This document shows, one piece after another, positions 39,949 to 51,378 of a stretch of 64,000 nucleotides of DNA. The notes below the pieces were generated by a model. The model worked only from the letters and a program-made list of their open reading frames with translations. It did not search any database and was not told where the DNA came from. Position numbers and translations under genes: made by a program. Position 1 is the first letter of the stretch. Every line of letters starts with the position of its first letter. The stretch comes from Campylobacter sp. (lineage in GTDB: Bacteria; Campylobacterota; Campylobacteria; Campylobacterales; Campylobacteraceae), in contig NZ_JAHZBQ010000003.1 in the NCBI RefSeq assembly GCF_019423325.1, positions 138,601 through 202,600 on the forward strand, read 5' to 3'.

Positions 39949-40645
39949 GTGCTGATAAAACTGCGGCTCGCAACGCCGCAAGATGCGGAGGCGCTGCTTG
40001 AAATTTACGCGCCTTACGTAAAGCAAACGGCGATCAGCTTTGAATACGACGTGCCCAGCGCCGCGGAATTTGTGGGGCGCATCGGACAGACGCTGCAAAG
40101 ATACCCCTATCTGCTCGCTTACGTAAGCAACGAGACGGCATGCACGGGCGATGAACGGAATGAAAATTTTAAAATTTCTGCGAGCGCGGCAGGCGCAGGG
40201 AGTGAAATTTTGCCCGCATACGAGGCGCGAAATTGCGCAAGCGGTGCGGCGAAACAAAATAGCGCAAATTTAAAACACGGGCAAATCCTCGGCTACGCCT
40301 ACGCTTCGGTTTTCAAAGAGCGGGCGGCATACGATTGGTCGGCGGAGTGCTCGGTTTACGTGTCGCGAAACGTGCGCGCTTAGGGCTCAAAACATAGTAG
40401 ATATGAACGCTTGCATCGCTTGCGGGGATGACGAATATCTAAACGACGCGAGCGTGCGATTTCACGAGCGTATGGGTTTTCGCTTCGTCGGCAGATTCGA
40501 GCGCTGCGCCTATAAATTCGGCCGCTGGTACGATATGGCATGGATGCAAAAGCCCATCGGCGAGCATCTGCAAAATCAGCCCGCAATGAGGCCTTTCGCG
40601 CGCTTTAGAGATGAAATTTGCGCGAGCGCGGGCATTGAAATTTAA
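39949..40645 (+). pseudogene. GNAT N-acetyltransferase (phosphinothricin-acetyltransferase-like), disrupted
   Basis: The N-half (IRLATPQDAEALLEIYAPYV...AYDWSAECSVYVS) ends at a TAG at 40381. The C-half (ALRAQNIVDMNACIA...SVRFHERMGFRFVGRFERCAYKFGRWYDMAWMQK) continues in another frame. The acetyl-CoA P-loop segment (R/Q-x-x-G-x-G/A) between them is missing. An extra low-complexity insert lies at ~40135-40288. Confidence 0.7.
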
Positions 40646-40660
40646 TTTAAAGGAAAAACT

Positions 40661-41527
40661 TTGACCCATTTTATCATTGACGACGAAAATATCGACGTCG
40701 ATAATATATTCGACGTCGTAAATCTCAAAGAGGGCGACGAGCTGAATATCGTCTCCAACACCGCTAAAAAGATCGACGCCTTGACCCTTGCGCGCCTATC
40801 GAAGATGGGCGTTAGCATAGGCGAGGTTTTTACGATCGGCAAGCAAAGAAAGGACTTCGCCGATAAGATCATCGTGTTTTTGATGGGTAAGCTCTGCGGG
40901 CAGGAGGGCAAGATCGGTATCGTCAGCAACGACAAATTTTACGACGACGTGATAGAATTCTTTAACGATCTAAACTACCGCAAAAATCCTAAATTTGAAA
41001 AGATCAGTCTAGCCTCGCATGCCGCAGGGGCGAACGCAAAGCAAGGCAAGGCAGGCGGCGCGGCGGAGAAAAAAGCCCAAAAACCGGAGCCGAAAACTGC
41101 AAAGCAGGAGCCAAAGGCCCAAAAGCAAGGTGCAAAAGCCGCAAAGCAGGAGCCGAAGGCTGTACAACATGAACAAAAAGCCGTAAATTCTAAAATCTCC
41201 AAAGCAGACCTTGCCGCGGCGGAGGCGCTGATCCCGCAGTGCGTGAGCCTACAAGCCCTCTATGCCGCATGCGTCGCAAAGCTCGGCAGAGCCAAAGGCT
41301 GCGAGGTCTACCGCGAGATCAAGGACGGCGCGCGAGCAAGGTACGCGAGCATCGCCTACGATAGCGACTTAAAAGACGGCGCCGTAAGGCGAAACGCGAT
41401 CAAGCTTTACCGCGAAAGCGGCGGCGATATGGCGGAATTTCACAATAGGCTGACGAGCGAATACAAACACGCTGGTCCTGAAATTTATAAAGAATTTAAA
41501 GAAAAACTCGTCGGAAAGATGATCTAG
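40661..41527 (+). CDS. hypothetical protein; possible NYN/LabA-like N-terminal domain, Lys/Ala/Gln-rich repeat linker
   Basis: 288 aa. FIIDDENIDVD and IGIVSNDKFYDDVIEFF resemble NYN/LabA PIN-fold motifs (weak, from memory). The linker has KQEPKA-type repeats. Confidence 0.4.
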   Translation: MTHFIIDDENIDVDNIFDVVNLKEGDELNIVSNTAKKIDALTLARLSKMGVSIGEVFTIGKQRKDFADKIIVFLMGKLCGQEGKIGIVSNDKFYDDVIEFFNDLNYRKNPKFEKISLASHAAGANAKQGKAGGAAEKKAQKPEPKTAKQEPKAQKQGAKAAKQEPKAVQHEQKAVNSKISKADLAAAEALIPQCVSLQALYAACVAKLGRAKGCEVYREIKDGARARYASIAYDSDLKDGAVRRNAIKLYRESGGDMAEFHNRLTSEYKHAGPEIYKEFKEKLVGKMI

Positions 41528-41793
41528 GCACTTCGGGCGCAAGGATTTAAGGCACAGCGATAGTACGCGTCGCGACGTAGCGGCTAAAGCACGGCCTGGC
41601 AGCGTTAGATGTATCGTTACGGCGCGCGGCGATATGATGTAGCGCAACTAGACGCAACTAAAATGAAAATATTCGCTTGCGCGGCATCAGTCTTATTTTA
41701 CCGTATATAACCAAGCAAAGCCCAGGCGCTTAGGCATAGTAGCAGAGTAAAGATATATAGGATAAATTTCATTCTGCCAGGTTCAATCCGAGT

Positions 41794-42183
41794 CTAATCA
41801 TAGTTAAAGCTATATGGCTTGTAGCCGAAAATATGCAAGGTCTTTAAAGCGAGCTCTCTGACCTCTATCCAGGATTTGTTCTGATATACTAGATAGTCAT
41901 AAGTATCTCCCTCTAGCAAGCTTTGATCTTTAAAGTATCTATCTATGAGCTCCAAAAGTTCTCTTAGCGCATCCCTCTCATATGGCAGGAAGCAAAATTC
42001 AAATTGCTCCAATAAAGCGTTCTTGCATTCGGTATATAGAAATTCTATCATTTCCGATGGGCTTTCGTAATATTCAACCGCAGGATGTATCAAATGATCA
42101 ACTTGATATTCCAAAGAAGCCATACGGCATAGATTAACCATAAGCCCGCTTTTCCTAAATATCTCTTTTCCGTCAATTTGCAT
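41794..42183 (-). CDS. putative toxin-immunity protein, unknown family A (copy 1)
   Basis: 129 aa. About two-thirds identical by eye to the adjacent 42219-42608 product. Shared LCRMASLEYQV ... FEFCFLPYER ... SLLEGDTYDYLVY.NKSW.EVRELALKTL.IFGYKP..FNYD. Confidence 0.55.
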   Translation of the reverse strand: MQIDGKEIFRKSGLMVNLCRMASLEYQVDHLIHPAVEYYESPSEMIEFLYTECKNALLEQFEFCFLPYERDALRELLELIDRYFKDQSLLEGDTYDYLVYQNKSWIEVRELALKTLHIFGYKPYSFNYD

Positions 42184-42218
42184 TTAGGTTTCCTTTTATT
42201 GGGATATAAACTTCATAC

Positions 42219-42608
42219 TCAATCATAGTTGAAGTTTTCTGGTTTGTAGCCGAAAATATACAAAGTCTTCAAGGCTAGCTCTCTGACCTCTACCCATGAT
42301 TTATTGTGATAGACCAAATAATCATAGGTATCTCCCTCTAGCAGGCTGTTATCTCTAAAATATTTATGAATAAGATCCGCAAGTTCTTTTAAGATCTCTC
42401 TTTCATAGGGTAAAAAACAGAATTCAAATTTTCCGTCAAGGGCTCGCTCGCATTGGCTACATAGTACTTCTGCCATCTCCGATGGATCTTCGTAGTATTC
42501 AGCCGTAGCATGCACCAAATAATTGACTTGATATTCTAAAGAAGCCATGCGGCATAGCGAATATAGCAATGGAGCTTTATAATATATACTTTCTTCATTC
42601 ATTTGCAT
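42219..42608 (-). CDS. putative toxin-immunity protein, unknown family A (copy 2)
   Basis: 129 aa tandem paralogue of 41794-42183. Confidence 0.55.
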   Translation of the reverse strand: MQMNEESIYYKAPLLYSLCRMASLEYQVNYLVHATAEYYEDPSEMAEVLCSQCERALDGKFEFCFLPYEREILKELADLIHKYFRDNSLLEGDTYDYLVYHNKSWVEVRELALKTLYIFGYKPENFNYD

Positions 42609-42701
42609 TTAAATTTCCTTTTATTGGGATGTGGGTTTTGCCCGCATTATATCGTAATATATTTTTAAAATTCTCGCAGAAATTATCATTTTATAAAACT
42701 A

Positions 42702-42974
42702 CTATTTTAAAAGCGTAATTTGTTTTAAAGCCTTTTTCGCGCATCCCCTTAGATCCTCTTCACTTAATGAATCGCCTACCGTATCATCACCCCTCAACTC
42801 TTCGTCTGGTTCGAATTCATCGATGTCCGTAAGAAGTCTATTAAGCGGCTCATAATATTCATCGGGGAAATTTTTATCATTCATAAATTTATCCCAATAT
42901 ATCTTTTCAAATTCAAATACGTCGATTCTGTTTTGCAAAAAATCCTCTATTATTTTTATATATTCCTCTATCAT
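42702..42974 (-). CDS. small acidic protein, colicin-immunity-like (self-protective immunity family) candidate
   Basis: 90 aa. The I..FE.....F.........Y...L......D.FEPD.ELR pattern resembles colicin/CdiI-type immunity proteins as I remember them. Confidence 0.4.
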   Translation of the reverse strand: MIEEYIKIIEDFLQNRIDVFEFEKIYWDKFMNDKNFPDEYYEPLNRLLTDIDEFEPDEELRGDDTVGDSLSEEDLRGCAKKALKQITLLK

Positions 42975-42995
42975 TGACCCTCTTTCGGTATATTT

Positions 42996-43268
42996 TTAAT
43001 CGCCCACCGCTTTAATACTTAGAACCGACCATAGATTACTACCTATATTCACGCCTTCGCATAAATTTTTTATAATTGTTAAGTCGTTAGAAGAAATTTC
43101 TAAATCATATTCATACATTTGAACTAAAAAATCTTCCAGCGCTATACCATATTCTCCAGCCTTAACCAGCTCTTCCAAATAAATTACAAAGTCGCACCGA
43201 CCGACTCCAGCAAATTCATCTTTGTAATTACTGAATAAATTTAAAAATATCAGATCGCCGTATCTCAT
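42996..43268 (-). CDS. small protein, MafI-like immunity candidate
   Basis: 90 aa. The central GEYGIALEDFLVQMYEYDLEIS resembles the MafI-family immunity consensus as I remember it. Confidence 0.35.
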   Translation of the reverse strand: MRYGDLIFLNLFSNYKDEFAGVGRCDFVIYLEELVKAGEYGIALEDFLVQMYEYDLEISSNDLTIIKNLCEGVNIGSNLWSVLSIKAVGD

Positions 43269-43515
43269 TCGCCACTTTTCTTAAATTTATTTCTCATAGC
43301 CGCCCATTTTTAGAATGCAAATTTAACACTACAAATTTCATTCCGTAATGAACTATCTATAAGAATCCGATACTGCCCAATGCTAGTAAGATGATAGAAA
43401 TTCATCAAATATTCTTCCGTCATTTTTCCTCGCTTTAACTATGCTAACGTATATTTTCTTTAAATTCTAAAAATCAAATAAGCGTAGATTGACGCAAACT
43501 CGCCTTTATTAAATT

Positions 43516-44076
43516 TTAGTATAAATCAGACCAAAAAGGCACATACGGGCATTTTCCGACCGGCTTAAGAGGATTTTTACCAAATTCCCTCAAAAAGTAG
43601 TCATATAAATTTTTCCCATAATAAATGATATCGGTATAGTGTATAGATAAGACCGGCGGATCCGGTAATTTAAGACACGGCATATATCTATGAGAATATA
43701 CGGGTATAATCTTAGGCGCAATTTTGGCTACTTCTAGTACAACGGCTCGCTTGCGAGATCCGTCTTCGGGCATCGGACCCCATTTTTGCGTATTCCAATA
43801 GCCCTCGTTTGGGAAAATTTCATCAATAGGATCGTTTTTTAAGTACTCAAAGACGTAGTTCATAGCCCGCTTTATCTCCTTTATATTTTCATCGCTAAAG
43901 TCTCTCCAATTATAAAGTTTTACCGAAATAGGCAATGTATATGATAAAAAATCTCTTAGGCTTTTTGGAAATTTAAACTCATAAATTTGCTCTATTTTGT
44001 CTATTTCGCTCTCTTTCAAACCATCGCTCAATTCTATGCCGCTCTTTTCTAGCAGCTCTTTTATTTGCTTATACAT
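43516..44076 (-). CDS. SMI1/KNR4 (SUKH-1) family protein
   Basis: 186 aa. N-terminal LSDGLKESEIDKIEQIYEFKFPKSLRDFL is the hallmark SUKH/SMI1 opening. Size is typical. Confidence 0.7.
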   Translation of the reverse strand: MYKQIKELLEKSGIELSDGLKESEIDKIEQIYEFKFPKSLRDFLSYTLPISVKLYNWRDFSDENIKEIKRAMNYVFEYLKNDPIDEIFPNEGYWNTQKWGPMPEDGSRKRAVVLEVAKIAPKIIPVYSHRYMPCLKLPDPPVLSIHYTDIIYYGKNLYDYFLREFGKNPLKPVGKCPYVPFWSDLY

Positions 44077-44101
44077 ATTCTATTTTATCCTTATTAGGCT
44101 T

Positions 44102-44470
44102 TTAGTCGTAGTCGAAGTCGTCAAACTCATAACCAAAAATTTGGATTGTTTTTAGAGCTAATTCGCGTAGTTCGCAAAAGGTGCTATTGTGGTATATAAA
44201 ATCTTCATAGTCTGTCATAGAAGCCTTTTCCTCTTCCTCCCAAAATTTTGAATCGCACTCCGTAAATTTATCTAGCATTTTGGCTATCGCTTTACGTTCC
44301 TCTATACTGAAATAAATTTTGTTTGATTCCGCTAGGGCTATTTTACAAGCACTTTCACAATCTTCTATTAAATCTATGCACAACAAATACTTATCAAGCA
44401 TATATTTTTCTTGACACTCTAATGAGGCAAGGCAGCATAATTCTTTTAATAATCTTTCTTTTATCGACAT
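44102..44470 (-). CDS. putative toxin-immunity protein, unknown family A (divergent copy 3)
   Basis: 122 aa. Shares CLASLECQ near the N-terminus and a C-terminal DYEDFIYHN..F.ELRELALKTIQIFGYEFDDFDYD with the 41794/42219 pair. Confidence 0.5.
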   Translation of the reverse strand: MSIKERLLKELCCLASLECQEKYMLDKYLLCIDLIEDCESACKIALAESNKIYFSIEERKAIAKMLDKFTECDSKFWEEEEKASMTDYEDFIYHNSTFCELRELALKTIQIFGYEFDDFDYD

Positions 44471-44486
44471 TTTATTCTCCTAAATT

Positions 44487-45098
44487 TTATATCCCGTACC
44501 ACTTCGTTACATCCCCCTCTTCGTCGATATCGACCTCTATGTATTTGTATTTATTGTAAAGGCTCGGAATCAAAATTTCGTCATAATATTTTTTGCCGCA
44601 TTCTGCGATAAACATATACATATTATGATGGCACCACCGATTCGGCTCTTCCCAAAAAGCACCGTCTACGCGAGTATAATTTTTTAGAGGTTCGTATGGG
44701 CGAGCTATAAATTTATCTAAATTATAAAAGAAATTTTTTCTTAAAATTTTCCATTCTTCAAATTTTTTCATATTTAAATTTATATTGGCGCTAGTTTTAT
44801 GTTTTATGTCGGTATCTATGAAATTATTTAGATAAAATTGCCCAAATAGCATTATTAAAATATCTCTTACATTATCATCGCATAAATTAAAATTATGAAT
44901 TAATGCACTGGCGATAGAGTCGGTCTCATAGACTTCGGTGCTTTTCATTAGGCTAAACGCCTCAAGCTCATAAAAATCCAGTGGTCTTTTCCCGCTTGCG
45001 GCTTGAAAATCTTTAAAAATCTTAAATCTAAAATCTTCCGCTTCGCTAAAGAAATAGACGTATGGACTTAAATTTAGATTAAGTGCTTTTATTCTCAT
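44487..45098 (-). CDS. hypothetical protein (island gene)
   Basis: 203 aa, AT-rich, co-directional. No family recognised. Confidence 0.45.
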   Translation of the reverse strand: MRIKALNLNLSPYVYFFSEAEDFRFKIFKDFQAASGKRPLDFYELEAFSLMKSTEVYETDSIASALIHNFNLCDDNVRDILIMLFGQFYLNNFIDTDIKHKTSANINLNMKKFEEWKILRKNFFYNLDKFIARPYEPLKNYTRVDGAFWEEPNRWCHHNMYMFIAECGKKYYDEILIPSLYNKYKYIEVDIDEEGDVTKWYGI

Positions 45099-45130
45099 TT
45101 TATACCGTCCAAACTATTGTTTTTCGCATT

Positions 45131-45469
45131 TTAGTATTGTTTTGCATAATAAGCTCTTCCTTGCTGCGTTTCAGTCACGCCAAAGTATTTGCTATTTACA
45201 CTGACCGGCTCATAACTTTTATCATCTCTTAAAATATTTAAAATTTCAGATTTATCACATATCTCTTTCATTTCTGTATCATAACCCCAATTTGAACTAA
45301 ACAATCTTATATAACCTTGCTCGTATAAGAACAATAAAATTTCTTTCGCCACTTTAAGCGAATTGGCAACGTTAATAGAATTTAATTCCCAAACGATCTC
45401 CCATAAAGAGATATAATCGCCATCTTCGACTATTCCCGATAAAATAGTTAAAATCGTCTTTTTATTCAT
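45131..45469 (-). CDS. hypothetical small protein (island gene)
   Basis: 112 aa. No family recognised. Overlaps the upstream gene by 8 nt. Confidence 0.45.
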   Translation of the reverse strand: MNKKTILTILSGIVEDGDYISLWEIVWELNSINVANSLKVAKEILLFLYEQGYIRLFSSNWGYDTEMKEICDKSEILNILRDDKSYEPVSVNSKYFGVTETQQGRAYYAKQY

Positions 45470-45941
45470 TTAAAACCGCATTTCCTTTTAATGGAATTTT
45501 AACTACCGCACCGTCTTTGCTATTTTTAGCACAAGAATCCGGCGTACAATTTTCATAGAAAAATTTGATTTTATAAAAATTCTCATCCCCTGATGCAACT
45601 GCCAATAATAAGCTTTTTATGCGACGAAATCTATCGAAAATATTCGGCTTTGTATCTTCTTGATATTCATACGTTTTAAAACATTCGCTTTTTGCGTCTA
45701 TATCTACGTCGCGCCAACTTCCGTTTAGAAATATATCATTAGAGATAGAAATAATACCTTGCATTATTTCTGGGTCCAACTCTTTATTTTTATAATGCTG
45801 CAAAATCTTTTTTAAATCGGCTTCCAATTTCCAATACTCATCATCGGACCATAGATTATTATCTAAAATCATACCTATGAACGAATTTGCATCATATCTA
45901 TCATCAAATGCGGTATTTCTATAAAAATTTACAAGATTCAT
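45462..45941 (-). CDS. hypothetical protein, unknown family B (copy 2)
   Basis: I prefer the ATG at 45941 (AAAGGA RBS; MNLVNFYRNTAF...), which aligns with the start of the paralogue 45946-46332. Shared Y-R-N, NSF.G, W-S-D..YWKL and ..I.DRF.R.K.L motifs. Confidence 0.5.
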   Translation of the reverse strand: MNLVNFYRNTAFDDRYDANSFIGMILDNNLWSDDEYWKLEADLKKILQHYKNKELDPEIMQGIISISNDIFLNGSWRDVDIDAKSECFKTYEYQEDTKPNIFDRFRRIKSLLLAVASGDENFYKIKFFYENCTPDSCAKNSKDGAVVKIPLKGNAVLNE

Positions 45942-45945
45942 TGCA

Positions 45946-46332
45946 TTAATCCTTTGGAACATACCAAAAACCGCTATTGTCAAGCTTTTCTTTGAATGCG
46001 ATGCTGTTGCAAAGAACCTTTAATCTTTCAAATCTATCATATATGCTAGGCGCCACGCCGTCGCTGTTTTTTGCACACAGCATATTGCTTACATAAATTT
46101 CCGATTTGTCCTCCACGCCGATAACATCATTAAATATTGCTATTATTGCGACGAAAATTTCTCTTGGAAGCGTTTTGTTATGATAAAAGCTCAAAATCTG
46201 CATTAAAGCTTTATCCAACTTCCAATAGTCGCAATCTGACCAAGTTTTTTGATAGATAAATTTTCCGACAAACGAATTGATGCTGAATTTATCAGAATTT
46301 GTTGAATTTCGGTATAAAAGCTCTAAGTCCAT
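45946..46332 (-). CDS. hypothetical protein, unknown family B (copy 1)
   Basis: 128 aa paralogue of the 45462-45941 product. Confidence 0.5.
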   Translation of the reverse strand: MDLELLYRNSTNSDKFSINSFVGKFIYQKTWSDCDYWKLDKALMQILSFYHNKTLPREIFVAIIAIFNDVIGVEDKSEIYVSNMLCAKNSDGVAPSIYDRFERLKVLCNSIAFKEKLDNSGFWYVPKD

Positions 46333-46408
46333 TAATCACCTATCCTTTTTTTCATTTCTTTATTAAATTTAGCCATCTTTATGGCAAATTTTCGTTTATA
46401 AAAATCGA

Positions 46409-46744
46409 TTATTTTTTATTTGATAGCTCTTTAGATAGAATTTCTGAATTGGGATACAATTTTTTCAAAAATTCTATCTCTTCTTGATCTAGCTCATCTA
46501 AAACCTCTTCTATAGGTTTTTCGCTTAAAATTTTTCCATAAACCAAACTCAGCCTTTTATATGCGCGCGGGTTACCGTTCTTTTCAAATTGCCTTATTAT
46601 AGCAATTCTGCACTCTTTTGTTATTTCGGAATCGCCCATAAAAAGATCTTTTATATCGCAAGAGGCGCTTTGCTCTTTATATAGATAAAATATCCACGCA
46701 AATAATATTATAGCGGCGGCAATAAAGTAAATTTTATTTTTCAT
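46409..46744 (-). CDS. membrane-anchored small protein (first gene of the island)
   Basis: 111 aa. N-terminal TM/signal anchor IYFIAAAIILFAWIFYLY. Confidence 0.45.
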   Translation of the reverse strand: MKNKIYFIAAAIILFAWIFYLYKEQSASCDIKDLFMGDSEITKECRIAIIRQFEKNGNPRAYKRLSLVYGKILSEKPIEEVLDELDQEEIEFLKKLYPNSEILSKELSNKK

Positions 46745-46838: not shown

Positions 46839-46914
46839 TGGTGTCCTGCGTTGGATTCGAACCAACGACCCCCTCATTAAAAGTGAGATGCTCTACCTAC
46901 TGAGCTAGCAAGAC
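46839..46914 (-). tRNA. tRNA-Lys (anticodon UUU)
   Basis: Hand-folded, 76 nt. Acceptor GTCTTGC/GCAGGAC, anticodon loop CTTTTAA, T arm GTTGG-TTCGAAT-CCAAC, encoded CCA. Confidence 0.9.
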
Positions 46915-46925
46915 ATCGTAAGAAG

Positions 46926-47002
46926 TGGCGCGACGAATGGGGCTCGAACCCACGACCTCCGCCGTGACAGGGCGGCATTCTAACCAGCTGAACTACCGTC
47001 GC
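46926..47002 (-). tRNA. tRNA-Asp (anticodon GUC)
   Basis: Hand-folded, 77 nt. Acceptor GCGACGG/TCGTCGC, anticodon stem CCGCC/GGCGG with loop CTGTCAC, encoded CCA. Confidence 0.9.
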
Positions 47003-47062
47003 ACCAAAAATCACACTCGCAGCGCAAGTGCTAAAGAAGTATGAAATCCAAGGATTTCAAAA

Positions 47063-47138
47063 TGGTGGTCGCTGTAGGGATCGAACCTGCGACATCCACC
47101 TTGTAAGGGTGGCGCTCTACCAGCTGAGCTAAGCGACC
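47063..47138 (-). tRNA. tRNA-Val (anticodon UAC)
   Basis: Hand-folded, 76 nt. Acceptor GGTCGCT/AGCGACC, anticodon stem CCACC/GGTGG with loop CTTACAA, encoded CCA. One C-A mismatch in the T stem. Confidence 0.88.
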
Positions 47139-47874: not shown

Positions 47875-48945
<1,071 letters not shown>

Positions 48946-49010
48946 AATTTTAATATATTGGCAAAACTTGCTTTTTCTTGACGCCTAATTAAAAGACGGT
49001 TTGAAATTTT

Positions 49011-49040
49011 AACGCTCGTCGGACGGGCGTTAAAATTTTT
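49011..49040 (+). terminator. candidate kdsA terminator hairpin
   Basis: AACGCTCG-TCGGA-CGGGCGTT (one mismatch) followed by AAAATTTTT. Lies 65 nt after the kdsA stop. Confidence 0.35.
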
Positions 49041-49164
49041 ATAATACACGCATGGTTCACACCTAAAAATGTAAAAACATCTGAGCATAAATCGATAGAC
49101 TTATCATTGCCCTTGATCATTGTCTGTTTTACCAAAAAATTCAAACTTTCAAGTTTATAAATTT

Positions 49165-49425
49165 TTAAGCCTTAAATTTAAAAATTTCACCCACCTCGAT
49201 GCCTAAAATTTTTGAAATTTTATAAATATGCTCTAAATTAAAGTGCTTGTCGTAGCGGCAGCTCTCGCAGTTTGAGTAAAACGCGACCGACTTTATATCC
49301 ATACTTAGCGCCATATCCAGCTGGCTCATACCCTTGCTTTCGCGTAGTTTACGGACGTTGGCGGAGATTTGAAGATAAAAATTTTGTATCTCGTCTCCGT
49401 CAAAAAAGGCTAAATTTTCACTCAT
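49165..49425 (-). CDS. XRE-family helix-turn-helix transcriptional regulator
   Basis: 86 aa. HTH_3 pattern NVRKLRESKGMSQLDMALSMDI. Divergent from the Cys-rich peptide gene. Confidence 0.8.
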   Translation of the reverse strand: MSENLAFFDGDEIQNFYLQISANVRKLRESKGMSQLDMALSMDIKSVAFYSNCESCRYDKHFNLEHIYKISKILGIEVGEIFKFKA

Positions 49426-49430
49426 TTTTT

Positions 49431-49443
49431 TATCCTATAGGTA
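49431..49443. promoter_or_regulatory. operator-like half-degenerate palindrome TATCCTATAGGTA
   Basis: Shares the CCTATAGG core with the perfect palindrome at 49486-49499. Lies 6 nt upstream of the XRE start codon. Confidence 0.4.
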
Positions 49444-49485
49444 AAGTAAAAATTAAACTTTATTTGGATAAAATCCGCAAATCTA

Positions 49486-49499
49486 TATCCTATAGGATA
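49486..49499. promoter_or_regulatory. perfect 14-bp palindrome TATCCTATAGGATA (candidate XRE operator)
   Basis: Read directly. Lies 35 nt upstream of the peptide ATG, where a -10 element would be expected. Confidence 0.45.
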
Positions 49500-49533
49500 A
49501 ATAATTAGTAAATTTCTAGAGAAAGGAGAAGAA

Positions 49534-49698
49534 ATGAGTGCCACTATAAATCAATATGAAAAGCTATTCGGCAAAATTATTGAAGTTGTCGCAGGCCGAA
49601 CTTGCGCTTGCTTTTGCTCATGCAGTTGCGGCATGTGCGTATGCTCGTGCCGCGGTCGCAGAAGTGAAAACGACGAAATTGCATGGGAAATATGCTAA
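49534..49698 (+). CDS. 54-aa cysteine-ladder precursor-like peptide (MSATINQYEKLFGKIIEVVAGRTCACFCSCSCGMCVCSCRGRRSENDEIAWEIC)
   Basis: Translated by hand. Missing from the ORF track, apparently because it falls below the track's size cut-off (smallest listed ORF is 60 aa). ATG preceded by GAAAGGAGAAGAA (AGGAG with 7-nt spacing). Cys-free leader-like N-terminus, 8 Cys in 16 residues, TAA stop. Sits 48 nt upstream of a radical SAM/SPASM gene. Confidence 0.7.
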   Translation: MSATINQYEKLFGKIIEVVAGRTCACFCSCSCGMCVCSCRGRRSENDEIAWEIC

Positions 49699-49704
49699 AA
49701 ATTT

Positions 49705-49728
49705 ATCGGCGGACCGAACTCCGCCGAT
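49705..49728 (+). promoter_or_regulatory. intercistronic stem-loop between peptide gene and maturase gene
   Basis: ATCGGCGG-ACCGAACT-CCGCCGAT: a perfect 8-bp GC-rich stem in an AT-rich context. Followed by a T-rich stretch and the AGGA RBS of the maturase. Confidence 0.55.
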
Positions 49729-49746
49729 ACTATTTCAAGGATTTTT

Positions 49747-51156
49747 ATGATTTTTTCAAAATATGGCTTCGCCTTTCATGTAGGTAATGATGTAGCATTA
49801 TATAACTCTTTAAGGATGAAGCCGATCTATTTAAGCGATAACAAATTTAAGAAAATAAAAGAGATTGTTGACAAAAATGTGAAATTATCACAAGACTTAA
49901 AATGCGAAATCGACGAATTGATAAAGTATAAAATTTTAGTCAAAGAGGGCGATGATGAAAAAATTTTAAATTTTGTAAAATCGGTTATTCCTCAACCACA
50001 AATAAACGTATGCTATTTTATTTTAAGCGAACAATGCAATCTGGCTTGTAAATATTGCTTTTTAGGCAACAATAATCAAGAAAAGAGAAAGCGTTTCAAA
50101 AAAGAAAATATGAGTAAGCAAACGGCAATGGATGGAATTTTATTTTTCATAAAACAACTCGAAAGTGCAAATTTCGATGAAAATTCCAAGCCTACCATTT
50201 TATTTTACGGTGGCGAACCACTTTTAAATTTTGAAACACTTGTTTTTATAGTAAATAAAATTAACGAGCTTAAAAAGAGCTGTAAAGTTTTAGAAAAAGT
50301 TGAATTCGACTTGGTCACAAACGGGCTTTTATTAAACAAACAAAGGCTTTTAAAGCTAAACGAACTTGGCGTAAATATCGGTATTTCGATAGATGGTTGT
50401 AATAACGAAACAAATAAAATGCGCGTGGATATCGGCGGAAATTTTGTATTTGAAAAAATTATACAAAAACTTGATTTGGCAAAGTCACTTGGGGTTCCAA
50501 TTTCGCTTTCCGTAACGCTTACGCAAGATAGTATCAAAAATAAAAACGATATGCTTGAGCTTGTCAAGAAATACAATATAAAGGGCTTCGGTTTTAATAT
50601 TTTAATGTCGGATGAGAAGATTTCGGATTTGCACTATCAAAAAACGAGTGAGTTTTTAATCGAAATGTTTAAAGAATTGCGCAAGCTTGGAATTTATGAA
50701 GATAGAATGATGAGAAAGGTAAAATCCTTTGCAAAATCAAGCGTTTATTTTTCGGATTGTGCAGCTACAAGCGGCGGACAGATTGTAATTGCGGCAAACG
50801 GAGATGTGGGAATTTGCCAAGGCTGTTTGTATGATAGAAAATATTTTGTAACGAATGTCTTGGATGAAAATTTTAATCCGACGACCAATGAAATTTGGCA
50901 AAAATTTCGCCATCTCTCGCCGCCCGAAAAGAATGAATGTCAAGAATGTGAAGCTCTTGGCATTTGTGGTGGCGGCTGTCCGATAAGTGCGGCAAACGAA
51001 AAAGTAGGCAATACGATTGATTCTTTGGATAGGAGATTTTGCATTCACGCAAAAGAGAGTCTAAAATTTCTGATCTCAGACCTGCATAGGATCATAACAA
51101 AAGGCGAAAATAGCGAAATTTATGAAAAATGCGAAGTTGATAAGTTAGCGAGATAA
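49747..51156 (+). CDS. radical SAM / SPASM-domain peptide-modifying enzyme (maturase-like)
   Basis: 469 aa. CxxxCxxC radical SAM motif CNLACKYC and the GGEPLL SAM-binding motif. Full SPASM signature: C-x13-G-x4-C (CAATSGGQIVIAANGDVGIC), CQECEALGICGGGC (Cx2Cx5Cx3C) and a distal Cys (RRFCIH). About 90 aa precede the SAM cluster, where an RRE/PqqD-like element would sit. Confidence 0.85.
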   Translation: MIFSKYGFAFHVGNDVALYNSLRMKPIYLSDNKFKKIKEIVDKNVKLSQDLKCEIDELIKYKILVKEGDDEKILNFVKSVIPQPQINVCYFILSEQCNLACKYCFLGNNNQEKRKRFKKENMSKQTAMDGILFFIKQLESANFDENSKPTILFYGGEPLLNFETLVFIVNKINELKKSCKVLEKVEFDLVTNGLLLNKQRLLKLNELGVNIGISIDGCNNETNKMRVDIGGNFVFEKIIQKLDLAKSLGVPISLSVTLTQDSIKNKNDMLELVKKYNIKGFGFNILMSDEKISDLHYQKTSEFLIEMFKELRKLGIYEDRMMRKVKSFAKSSVYFSDCAATSGGQIVIAANGDVGICQGCLYDRKYFVTNVLDENFNPTTNEIWQKFRHLSPPEKNECQECEALGICGGGCPISAANEKVGNTIDSLDRRFCIHAKESLKFLISDLHRIITKGENSEIYEKCEVDKLAR

Positions 51157-51301
51157 TCCGTTATATAAATTTGCCGACTTTAATGTTTTACTTGACCCAA
51201 CCTTAATTCGAAATAGACACTAATTCTAGGTGCTGCTATCTGCAAGAGCTCATCATATATTTTATCTAAAATTTTGCTTCTTAATGCTAAAATAAATTCT
51301 T

Positions 51302-51378
51302 GACCTTTTCGTCTAGTGGCTCAGGACGTTGCATTCTCAGTGCGAAAACGCGTGGTTCAAATCCCGCAAGGGTCGCCA
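51302..51378 (+). tRNA. tRNA-Glu-like (anticodon CUC) with a bulged T stem
   Basis: Hand-folded, 77 nt. Acceptor GACCTTT/AAGGGTC. The D arm TCGTCTAGTGGCTCAGGAC is Glu-like. Anticodon stem TTGCA/TGCGA with loop TTCTCAG. The T arm GCG(T)GG-TTCAAAT-CCCGC needs one bulged T. Encoded CCA. Confidence 0.65.

Follow-up and report, generated by a model that had tools for sequence, protein, structure and literature searches.

A window of 64,000 nucleotides from Campylobacter sp. (contig NZ_JAHZBQ010000003.1, positions 138,601 to 202,600 of the forward strand) was analysed. In its segment 41794-46744, eleven small open reading frames (ORFs), all on the minus strand, lie between a tRNA cluster and a PIN7-like gene. 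We put the probability at roughly 0.8 that this island is a heterogeneous polyimmunity locus, i.e. a chromosomal store of immunity genes without toxins, in an uncultured Campylobacter clade. The reading is carried by the family memberships of the products, by relatives situated directly behind toxin domains, by vestiges of toxin genes, by the variation of the cassettes from strain to strain and by purifying selection. Immunity evidence is held by 8 of the 11 genes.

From the distal end towards the tRNAs, the ORFs across the island measure 129, 129, 90, 90, 186, 122, 203, 112, 159/173, 128 and 111 aa. The gaps between them, counted from the tRNA end, are 76, 4, -8, 32, 16, 25, 247, 21, 93 and 35 nt, and about 89% of the span is coding. 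The first ORF begins 95 bp past the 3' end of tRNA-Lys. This gene belongs to a cluster of tRNA-Val(tac), tRNA-Asp(gtc) and tRNA-Lys(ttt) at 46839..47138 (ARAGORN; Rfam tRNA 62.9-68.9 bits), which forms the upstream boundary on the same strand; no RNA other than these three was found by an RNA family search. The PIN7-like gene (40661-41527, plus strand) flanks the distal side. A preliminary description, made from the sequence alone, had counted ten genes here. The ORF list holds eleven, and a public gene caller predicted the same eleven on the source contig (ERZ28594951 scaffold_32; metagenome scaffold of 388,907 bp). What that description said of the layout proved accurate: the genes are co-directional on the minus strand, their spacers are short or overlapping (-8 to 93 nt besides the one of 247 nt), the island is AT-rich (33.4% GC, the remainder of the window having 47.2%), and it occupies the space between the gene ending at 41527 and the tRNA-Lys 3' end at 46839. 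It was also right that no integrase, transposase or delivery gene lies within the island. The remaining scanned ORFs of the window are of housekeeping type or unrelated to toxin delivery (PheT, ribosomal protein S1, SerA, Ffh, AroA, KdtA, GlnA, KdsA), and a two-partner secretion (TPS)/haemagglutinin gene was seen neither in the island nor among them.

The compact same-strand layout would fit a single transcript, possibly read through from the tRNA operon. Scans for promoters and terminators gave no signal over the shuffled background.

For comparison, 75 loci (designated L), all from metagenome-assembled genomes (MAGs) of uncultured Campylobacter, were collected by context look-ups and by a scan of one genome per species. 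They fall into two types, the tRNA-Lys/PIN7 island and a contact-dependent growth inhibition (CDI) locus adjoining trpB, whose first gene encodes CdiA, a TPS/haemagglutinin-repeat protein of 2,940 aa, with many small genes behind it. The ratio of nonsynonymous to synonymous substitution rates (dN/dS) could be computed for nine island genes, each compared with 9-31 distinct orthologues from related contigs, and ranges from 0.07 to 0.45, and the island ORFs are therefore real genes under purifying selection.

Immunity families among the island products

Three products reached curated Pfam cut-offs. Imm41a (45946..46332; 128 aa; dN/dS 0.22) scored 40.7 bits with the immunity family PF15592 and its neighbour Imm41b (45462..45941; 159 aa; dN/dS 0.09) 43.0 bits, both vs a cut-off of 26.9, and the two are 35% identical. 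The 159-aa form of Imm41b starts with the ATG at 45941, as in the gene caller's prediction; the mechanical ORF starts with a TTG at 45983 and gives 173 aa. ImmD (42702..42974; 90 aa; dN/dS 0.07) is a colicin-D-type immunity protein, which matched PF09204 Colicin_immun with 39.3 bits vs a cut-off of 22 over profile positions 3-87 of 88 (85/88 positions). By these memberships the Imm41 pair would act against the toxin types tied to Imm41 by Pfam and Zhang et al. (2012), and ImmD against colicin-D-type tRNases.

The SUKH-like gene (43516..44076; 186 aa) owes its place in the argument mainly to the neighbours of its relatives. Its match to SMI1_KNR4 (PF09346) reached 20.4 bits, under the cut-off of 25.4. 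In an alignment of the window protein with 44 relatives, 15 of the 45 sequences matched this profile at E<=1e-3, the best at 6.4e-6, and an exhaustive search returned 1179 representative relatives. When the family profile was compared with the PDB, only YobK (2prv) and a Smi1/Knr4 protein (3d5p) came up, at a weak E=0.25-0.39. The genomic context of two relatives was inspected. P0170 (45% identical) lies 13 nt behind the gene of a 400-aa protein with PF00545 Ribonuclease as its C-terminal domain, in a locus whose WXG100 and FtsK/EssC genes indicate type VII secretion. P0167 (48% identical) lies 10 nt behind ORFs ending in the same domain (53.8-54.6 bits). Since both stand directly behind PF00545 toxins, the family behaves as immunity to secreted RNase toxins. 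The protein is a probable distant SUKH relative, judging by its profile matches, and would act against PF00545-type RNase toxins.

The fifth product with a family lead is a small acidic protein of 90 aa (42996..43268; dN/dS 0.45) resembling MafI. It matched NCBIfam NF033691 immunity_MafI over positions 21-63 of 67 (E=7.2e-6), with 25.7 bits and thus under the cut-off of 31. It is also 69% identical to a 96-aa gene located behind the immunity gene (cdiI) of the CDI locus L010. Sequence searches of the PDB with the ImmD (phmmer), MafI-like and Imm41 proteins returned nothing meaningful.

Three genes are without family assignment, and none of the three matched Pfam. TM111 (46409..46744; 111 aa; dN/dS 0.17), which has one N-terminal hydrophobic helix, is the first gene in every island. 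A paralogue 29% identical to it (E=3e-11) lies upstream of TM111 in many relatives and is missing from the window. No similarity was seen between TM111 and the membrane protein that closes the CDI array, TM111 being related only to its own paralogue. U112 (45131..45469; 112 aa; dN/dS 0.24), whose start overlaps the Imm41b stop by 8 nt, and U203 (44487..45098; 203 aa; dN/dS 0.18) matched neither Pfam nor NCBIfam. In a word-indexed search all relatives of U112 were at least 84% identical, the named ones coming from uncultured Campylobacter, and the 21 relatives of U203 were likewise all at least 84% identical. Two 113-aa genes, in the CDI locus of L010 and in the L004 island, were considered as possible U112 relatives and received no support from BLASTP. 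The AlphaFold model of U203 was not used for a fold search because its confidence score (pLDDT) was 47.

These results bear on several earlier statements. The gene announced as a clear SUKH is under the family cut-off. Of the two acidic proteins of about 90 aa, the resemblance to colicin-type immunity proteins is secured by Pfam and that to MafI stays under the NCBIfam cut-off, so that profile searches upheld Imm41 twice and Colicin_immun and left SUKH and MafI below their thresholds. The at least five proteins said to have no family reduce to three genes without any lead, TM111, U112 and U203. No island protein matched a housekeeping family in Pfam or NCBIfam, a match of that kind being what the preliminary description had named as speaking against its idea. 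That idea, a stockpile of orphan immunity genes belonging to polymorphic toxin systems, gained support from the three matches above cut-off and from homologues placed beside toxin domains: FamA genes (see below) after CdiA C-termini with Ntox30, SUKH-like relatives after PF00545, and the 69% identical MafI-like homologue in a CDI array.

FamA genes, Ntox30 toxins and toxin vestiges

The last two genes of the island (42219..42608 and 41794..42183; both 129 aa) are 67% identical and define a family that we call FamA; dN/dS is 0.13 for the gene at 41794..42183. A third, diverged member, A6 (44102..44470; 122 aa), shares 33-37% identity with FamA genes (lowest E 2e-15) and has in common with them the invariant C-terminal block ELRELALKT..FGY..F.YD. 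Two duplicated families had been announced for the island; one of them has three members rather than two.

The FamA gene at 42219..42608, proposed to encode Ntox30 immunity, is 60-72% identical to four FamA genes behind an Ntox30 orphan toxin in L010, and that at 41794..42183 is 77% identical to the FamA gene directly behind the same toxin. The pairing is also found at CdiA itself. In L015, L031 and L081 the CdiA reading frame ends in RVRIHAPENN...NETHIPIKGNPNAN (C-terminus ...RVRIH...ETHIPIKGNPNAN) before its stop codon, and a FamA gene comes next with its start overlapping the toxin stop. The L015 CdiA ORF is at least 2261 aa long, with a TPS domain (144.8 bits) and Fil_haemagg repeats, and its C-terminus scored 22.9 bits with Pfam Ntox30 (PF15532; E=1e-4), a little short of the cut-off of 25. 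The RxH (RIH) and THIP motifs of Ntox30 are present in all variants of the CdiA C-termini paired with FamA. For this domain Zhang et al. (2012; PMC3482391) list the motifs RxH, R and THIP, and THIP is a defining one. In L065 and L082 a diverged Ntox30 toxin (ending in EGHIPIKGNKNLGE and a stop) is followed directly by a diverged 117-aa FamA variant. Among 15 distinct pairs, the more alike two toxins are, the more alike their immunity proteins tend to be (Spearman 0.58, a value reached in 19 of 5000 Mantel permutations). The result is supportive and not decisive because adjacent genes co-vary partly by linkage alone.

The survey of Zhang et al. (2012; PMC3482391) gives for Ntox30 no immunity protein, no delivery by the type V secretion system (T5SS) and no epsilon-proteobacteria. 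FamA is, from its gene neighbourhoods, a likely candidate for the antidote family that this survey left unassigned. The three FamA proteins would then neutralise variants of Ntox30, a predicted RNase. FamA has 616 relatives, the named ones from uncultured Campylobacter; a Pfam domain was found on 0 of the 120 relatives listed, and the annotation 'phytanoyl-CoA dioxygenase' carried by a few has no Pfam support. Its AlphaFold model is all-helical (pLDDT 88). Comparison of folds with Foldseek, which the preliminary description had proposed, assigned no PDB fold, only generic helical bundles being returned (best E=0.77), and the FamA profile found no match among PDB sequences. A family of this size without a Pfam model, and with a helical model that the PDB does not match, is a concrete candidate for Ntox30 immunity.

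The origin of the FamA cassettes can be seen at their borders. Upstream of the FamA gene at 42219..42608 a toxin-gene 3' vestige of 23 codons remains at 42595..42666. Its translation ends in KNILRYNAGKTHIPIKGNLNANE and a stop, to be compared with CdiA C-termini ending in KYFDDAGNIKRAKTNETHIPIKGNPNAN and a stop, and it overlaps the following FamA start exactly as intact toxins do. A second Ntox30 vestige, of 11 codons (YIPIKGNLNAN and a stop), lies at 42173..42208, and the last FamA gene begins inside it. The direct repeats D3 and D4 are common to both. Where detected in relatives, island Ntox30 remnants measure 17-27 aa vs about 80 aa or more in CDI loci. Given these stubs, the FamA cassettes at least must stem from toxin-immunity modules. 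The earlier statement that the island lacks a toxin accordingly holds for intact toxin genes and fails for these two 3' vestiges. No island protein carries a toxin domain by Pfam or NCBIfam; U203 or U112, both without family, could conceivably be a novel toxin. In addition, tblastn gave no match in the window at E<=1e-4 for any of three queries, namely the CdiA C-terminus (last 1,000 aa), the Ntox30 fragment and T463, an orphan toxin of the CDI locus. Toxin fragments were recognised before 2 of the 11 genes only, as short stubs, and before none of the others.

A further likeness was noticed at Imm41b. Its C-terminal tail, ending in KIPLKGNAVLNE and a stop (45461-45497, minus strand), overlaps the U112 start and resembles the Ntox30 tail HIPIKGNLNANE (repeat D3). 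This tail is unproven as a further toxin stub. Only GNAVLNE is retained where U112 comes after FamA in relatives, and the likeness may therefore be a mere ribosome-binding site and junction.

The 247-nt spacer (43269..43515) between the SUKH-like and MafI-like genes is a deletion scar, as seen by blastn and sequence inspection. Relatives have at this place a 159-aa immunity gene, I159. The scar retains the I159 start region, then a 41-nt match to the junction of a 113-aa gene and the orphan toxin T463 of the CDI locus: homology to L004, L039 and L023 stops at window position 43414 and restarts at 43303, and window 43373-43333 corresponds to L010 4117-4157 at 85%. At the other end, the block shared with the CDI locus extends past the last FamA gene. 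Window 42622-41718 matches L010 9987-10891 (77%) and L015 9551-10466 by blastn, so that island/CDI-locus homology runs from the toxin tail to about 76 bp beyond the last FamA stop. These 76 bp (41718..41793), the distal edge of the block, are also conserved behind the FamA block of the CDI locus and include a terminator-like hairpin at 41735-41720. A 24-codon hydrophobic ORF (MKFILYIFTLLLCLSAWALLGYIR; 41698-41772, minus strand) directly after the last FamA gene overlaps them.

The trpB-linked CDI locus and the probable orphan status of the island

The toxin/immunity arrays of the CDI loci have 35-36% GC, near the 33% of the island, in a core genome of about 47%. The CdiA of L010 has a PF00545 Ribonuclease domain at its C-terminus (25.4 bits vs a cut-off of 24), and the overlapping next gene is I159, its CdiI. 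A gene of the L004 island is 94% identical to I159, and in both loci the MafI-like gene comes next. I159 occurs in 20 of the 30 complete islands, the window being without it.

CdiA C-termini are varied. At the trpB-linked loci (L010 2-11400; L024, L033, L050, L074, L082) each has its own small downstream gene, and the domains seen include PF00545 RNase, a colicin-E3-like 'Cytotoxic' domain (117.6 bits), a weak ParB_N-like match and at least three without assignment. The locus also holds the orphan toxin-like ORF T463, of 463 aa, followed by three lipoprotein-like small genes.

This diversity was used to judge whether the island genes are orphans. They could instead be extra immunity copies against the strain's own toxins, namely the CdiA C-terminus and the orphan modules at the trpB-linked locus, kept at a second, constitutively expressed site. 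In favour of this, FamA is present at both loci of one MAG, with nine copies in L015 behind its own CdiA-Ntox30 and one in the L039 island, and Ntox30 orphan modules occur in the CDI arrays of most strains of the lineage. We nevertheless regard such a duplicate function as unlikely. At least five MAGs carry in the island the CdiI of an RNase-type CdiA although their own CdiA ends in a different toxin. I159 is present in islands L039 and L041, and the CdiA of the same MAGs (CDI loci L015 and L031, respectively) ends in Ntox30. It is present in island L079, with a CdiA (L024) ending in the colicin-E3-like 'Cytotoxic' domain, and in islands L066 and L075, with CdiA proteins (L033 and L050, respectively) ending in different toxins to which no family was assigned. 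L023 represents a sixth such MAG, judged by architecture. Only one MAG has the RNase CdiA and I159 together at the CDI locus (L027), and its island (L049) is without I159. The retrieved CDI loci, moreover, hold no toxin paired to an Imm41, ImmD or SUKH-like gene, and the FamA copies differ by 20-40%, as expected for distinct specificities.

The polyimmunity reading is in agreement with the composition of the islands across the lineage. The 30 complete islands, window included, show 28 gene orders. TM111, Imm41a, Imm41b and FamA are present in 30/30, and the variable families are ImmD (24/30), MafI-like (22/30), U203 (21/30), I159 (20/30), U112 (20/30), SUKH-like (19/30) and A6 (12/30). Further variants of the island were met in metagenome contigs. 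Median synonymous divergence (dS) is 0.10-0.26 for island genes and 0.56 for FamA, comparable to the 0.25-0.32 of the flanking core genes, which indicates a long residence at the site.

The same data can be set against the idea that the island is a graveyard, a decaying and functionless remnant of an old array of CDI orphan modules whose immunity genes are to erode after the toxins. The toxin stubs and the deletion scar would fit this, as would the fragmentation of Imm41a, U203 and FamA copies in some relatives and the high instability of cassette content. Erosion is, however, one-sided, since toxins are down to 17-27 codons where detected and the immunity genes are full-length. The eleven ORFs are intact, the dN/dS values given above show constraint, four families are universal and the dS values speak for long retention. 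Decay of this kind is thus quite improbable.

Several points weigh against the polyimmunity reading. Three of the 11 genes (TM111, U112 and U203) are tied to no toxin or immunity family, the SUKH-like and MafI-like matches are both under curated cut-offs, and so, by a little, is the Ntox30 match of the CdiA C-terminus. The co-variation of FamA with its toxins is open to the linkage effect already mentioned. L012 and L057, scored as islands, hold Ntox30 remnants of 82 aa. The comparison genomes are all MAGs or metagenome contigs, in which repeats such as FamA can yield chimeric assemblies. Of the present strain the window alone was seen, and some of its island genes, FamA above all, may serve against the strain's own CDI toxins and so not be orphans. 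Finally, actual protection by the island genes is a prediction from sequence.

Four hybrid contigs were observed. L012 and L057 consist of CDI-array genes, then FamA, then PIN7, and L036 and L025 of island genes, FamA and TrpB or CdiA. Both kinds connect the two locus types at the FamA repeat and may have arisen through misassembly or as reciprocal products of a genuine recombination or inversion.

Chromosomal setting and comparison with known systems

A scan of metagenomes with the PIN7-like protein found FamA adjoining the PIN7-like gene in every contig of the same lineage that was long enough, and no empty site was found within the lineage. In a distant lineage, whose PIN7-like protein is about 50% identical, the gene has other neighbours and no tRNAs, which makes it uninformative on insertion. 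The PIN7-like protein itself has a Lys/Ala/Gln/Glu/Pro-rich repeat (KQEPKAQK...) in its middle and varies in length, with 288-295 aa among members of the lineage as against 407 aa in the distant one.

Its position against a tRNA and its AT-richness could make the island a mobile, recombinase-driven cassette array, either integron-like or resembling the recombinase-associated acquired interbacterial defence (rAID) clusters of Bacteroidales, or else a tRNA-Lys element minus its integrase. In about 10 relatives the stretch separating tRNA-Lys from the island does contain a tyrosine integrase of 408 aa. It is encoded, with little else, by an element of about 3.6 kb and 34% GC inserted at the tRNA-Lys 3' end (L004 1937-5538; also L025, L043, L049, L066, L068, L069, L075, L117 and L122). 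In L004, however, this element is bounded by direct repeats of its own, each of 15 bp and matching the end of tRNA-Lys on its 3' side (CAACGCAGGACACCA). Window-like sequence resumes after the second repeat, which ends before the island and so leaves the island outside the element. The window holds no second copy of the tRNA-Lys 3' end, and no attC-like or other intergenic or inter-cassette repeats were found except the toxin-tail repeat. Every lineage contig reaching far enough has the island at the same site. A mobile array is for these reasons very improbable. Because the integrase element is separately bounded and the window lacks both a second repeat and inter-cassette repeats, the island is, as judged from its sequence surroundings, a fixed chromosomal locus beside an integration hot spot and not a mobile island.

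Small, AT-rich and variable genes beside a tRNA are also typical of anti-phage defence islands, and a toxin-antitoxin cluster could be considered in the same way. PADLOC, however, matched 0 of the 10 island proteins tested, no toxin partner genes are present, and such matches as were obtained point to interbacterial immunity families and to neighbours of CDI toxin genes. An assignment to either class is hardly credible.

Arrays of orphan cdiA-CT/cdiI modules are reportedly found downstream of cdiBAI loci. They consist of tandem units in which the 3' part of a toxin gene is followed by an abutting or overlapping immunity gene, and they undergo homologous recombination; the trpB-linked locus of the lineage is such an array. 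The island differs from it by lying between tRNA-Lys and the PIN7-like gene, by toxin parts that are reduced to 11-23 codons or absent, and by Imm41, ImmD and SUKH-like genes without toxin partner in the retrieved CDI loci. Being not downstream of cdiBAI and having lost its toxin parts, the island is not itself an orphan module array. Neisseria maf genomic islands are also said to contain MafI immunity genes. They are multi-cassette islands with small acidic proteins of the MafI type, which one window gene resembles below the NCBIfam cut-off. Neither the window nor the related loci inspected showed a gene for a MafB toxin or for MafA.

The closest agreement is with the heterogeneous polyimmunity loci defined by Zhang, de Souza, Anantharaman, Iyer and Aravind (2012, Biol Direct 7:18; PMC3482391), who list Imm41 as a frequent component of such loci and epsilon-proteobacteria among the Imm41 hosts. 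These loci have at least four tandem immunity genes of unrelated families, and the island has Imm41 twice, ImmD, three FamA genes by synteny and the SUKH-like gene by the context of its relatives. No toxin genes or cassettes interrupt it, only the 11- and 23-codon stubs. Its genes are co-oriented with gaps of -8 to 93 nt besides the scar, and their number and type vary between strains (28 architectures among the 30 islands). Some of the described loci, like some relatives of the island, have a recombinase next to them. Unlike the described loci, the island retains short toxin stubs, includes in FamA a family outside the described Imm families, and has an identifiable probable source, a CDI array of the same lineage. 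According to Ross et al. (2019; bioRxiv 10.1101/471110), the acquired interbacterial defence (AID) clusters of gut Bacteroidales are orphan immunity arrays against toxins of other strains or species. Such clusters are reported to counter effectors of the type VI secretion system and to lie on mobile elements or beside a dedicated recombinase. The island is comparable as an array of orphan immunity genes in what sample names suggest are host-associated communities. It departs from the AID clusters in its link to CDI (T5SS) as delivery system, in its fixed chromosomal position and in having neither an integrase in the window nor inter-cassette repeats. A literature search found no description of CDI or polyimmunity loci in the present Campylobacter lineage.

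Three further features of the surroundings were recorded. KdsA (2-dehydro-3-deoxyphosphooctonate aldolase, 346 aa; 47905-48945, plus strand) contains an Ala/Ser/Gln-rich low-complexity insertion of about 75 aa, Pfam DAHP_synth_1 spreading residues 1-334 over just 241 profile positions; among related loci its identity is 79-96% vs 97-98% for the adjoining SLT gene. A GNAT acetyltransferase at 39949-40645 (plus strand) is split into two ORFs of 144 and 80 aa and is one 257-aa gene in L004, L005 and L006, the split copy of the window strain being probably a pseudogene. A second low-GC segment (34%; 49000-51160, plus strand), with a radical-SAM/SPASM gene at 49747-51156 shortly before a tRNA-Glu at 51302, may be another acquired segment.

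Under the polyimmunity reading, each island product would bind and block one type of toxin domain, as its family suggests. These domains would arrive from neighbouring strains by CDI (CdiA, two-partner secretion) or by other polymorphic toxin systems, and the island would let the cell survive toxins that it does not make itself. Shared blocks, stubs and scars suggest that cassettes move by homologous recombination between the island and the trpB-adjacent CDI locus. If they are transferred in that direction, the toxin portion would be trimmed off and the immunity gene retained. Only tentatively, and with the odds somewhat against it, do we extend this to a combined proposal. In it, FamA would be a new all-helical family and the first for Ntox30, and the tRNA-Lys island and the trpB-linked CDI locus would form a two-locus system exchanging cassettes by homologous recombination via the toxin tail, the FamA genes and the conserved 76 bp. 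The island would then be a lineage-wide archive against conspecific toxins, and L012, L057, L036 and L025 would be real products of exchange or inversion.

The analysis adds to the first reading of this DNA a full CDI locus beside trpB that shares cassettes with the island, the retained toxin stubs and the fixed position. The general picture of orphan immunity is unchanged, polyimmunity loci being an already known kind of which the present one is well resolved. What the case shows unusually clearly is where cassettes come from, with a probable donor CDI array in the same lineage and with stubs and scars at the cassette borders. The data point to intense strain-level competition via CDI toxins in a Campylobacter clade known only from metagenomes.

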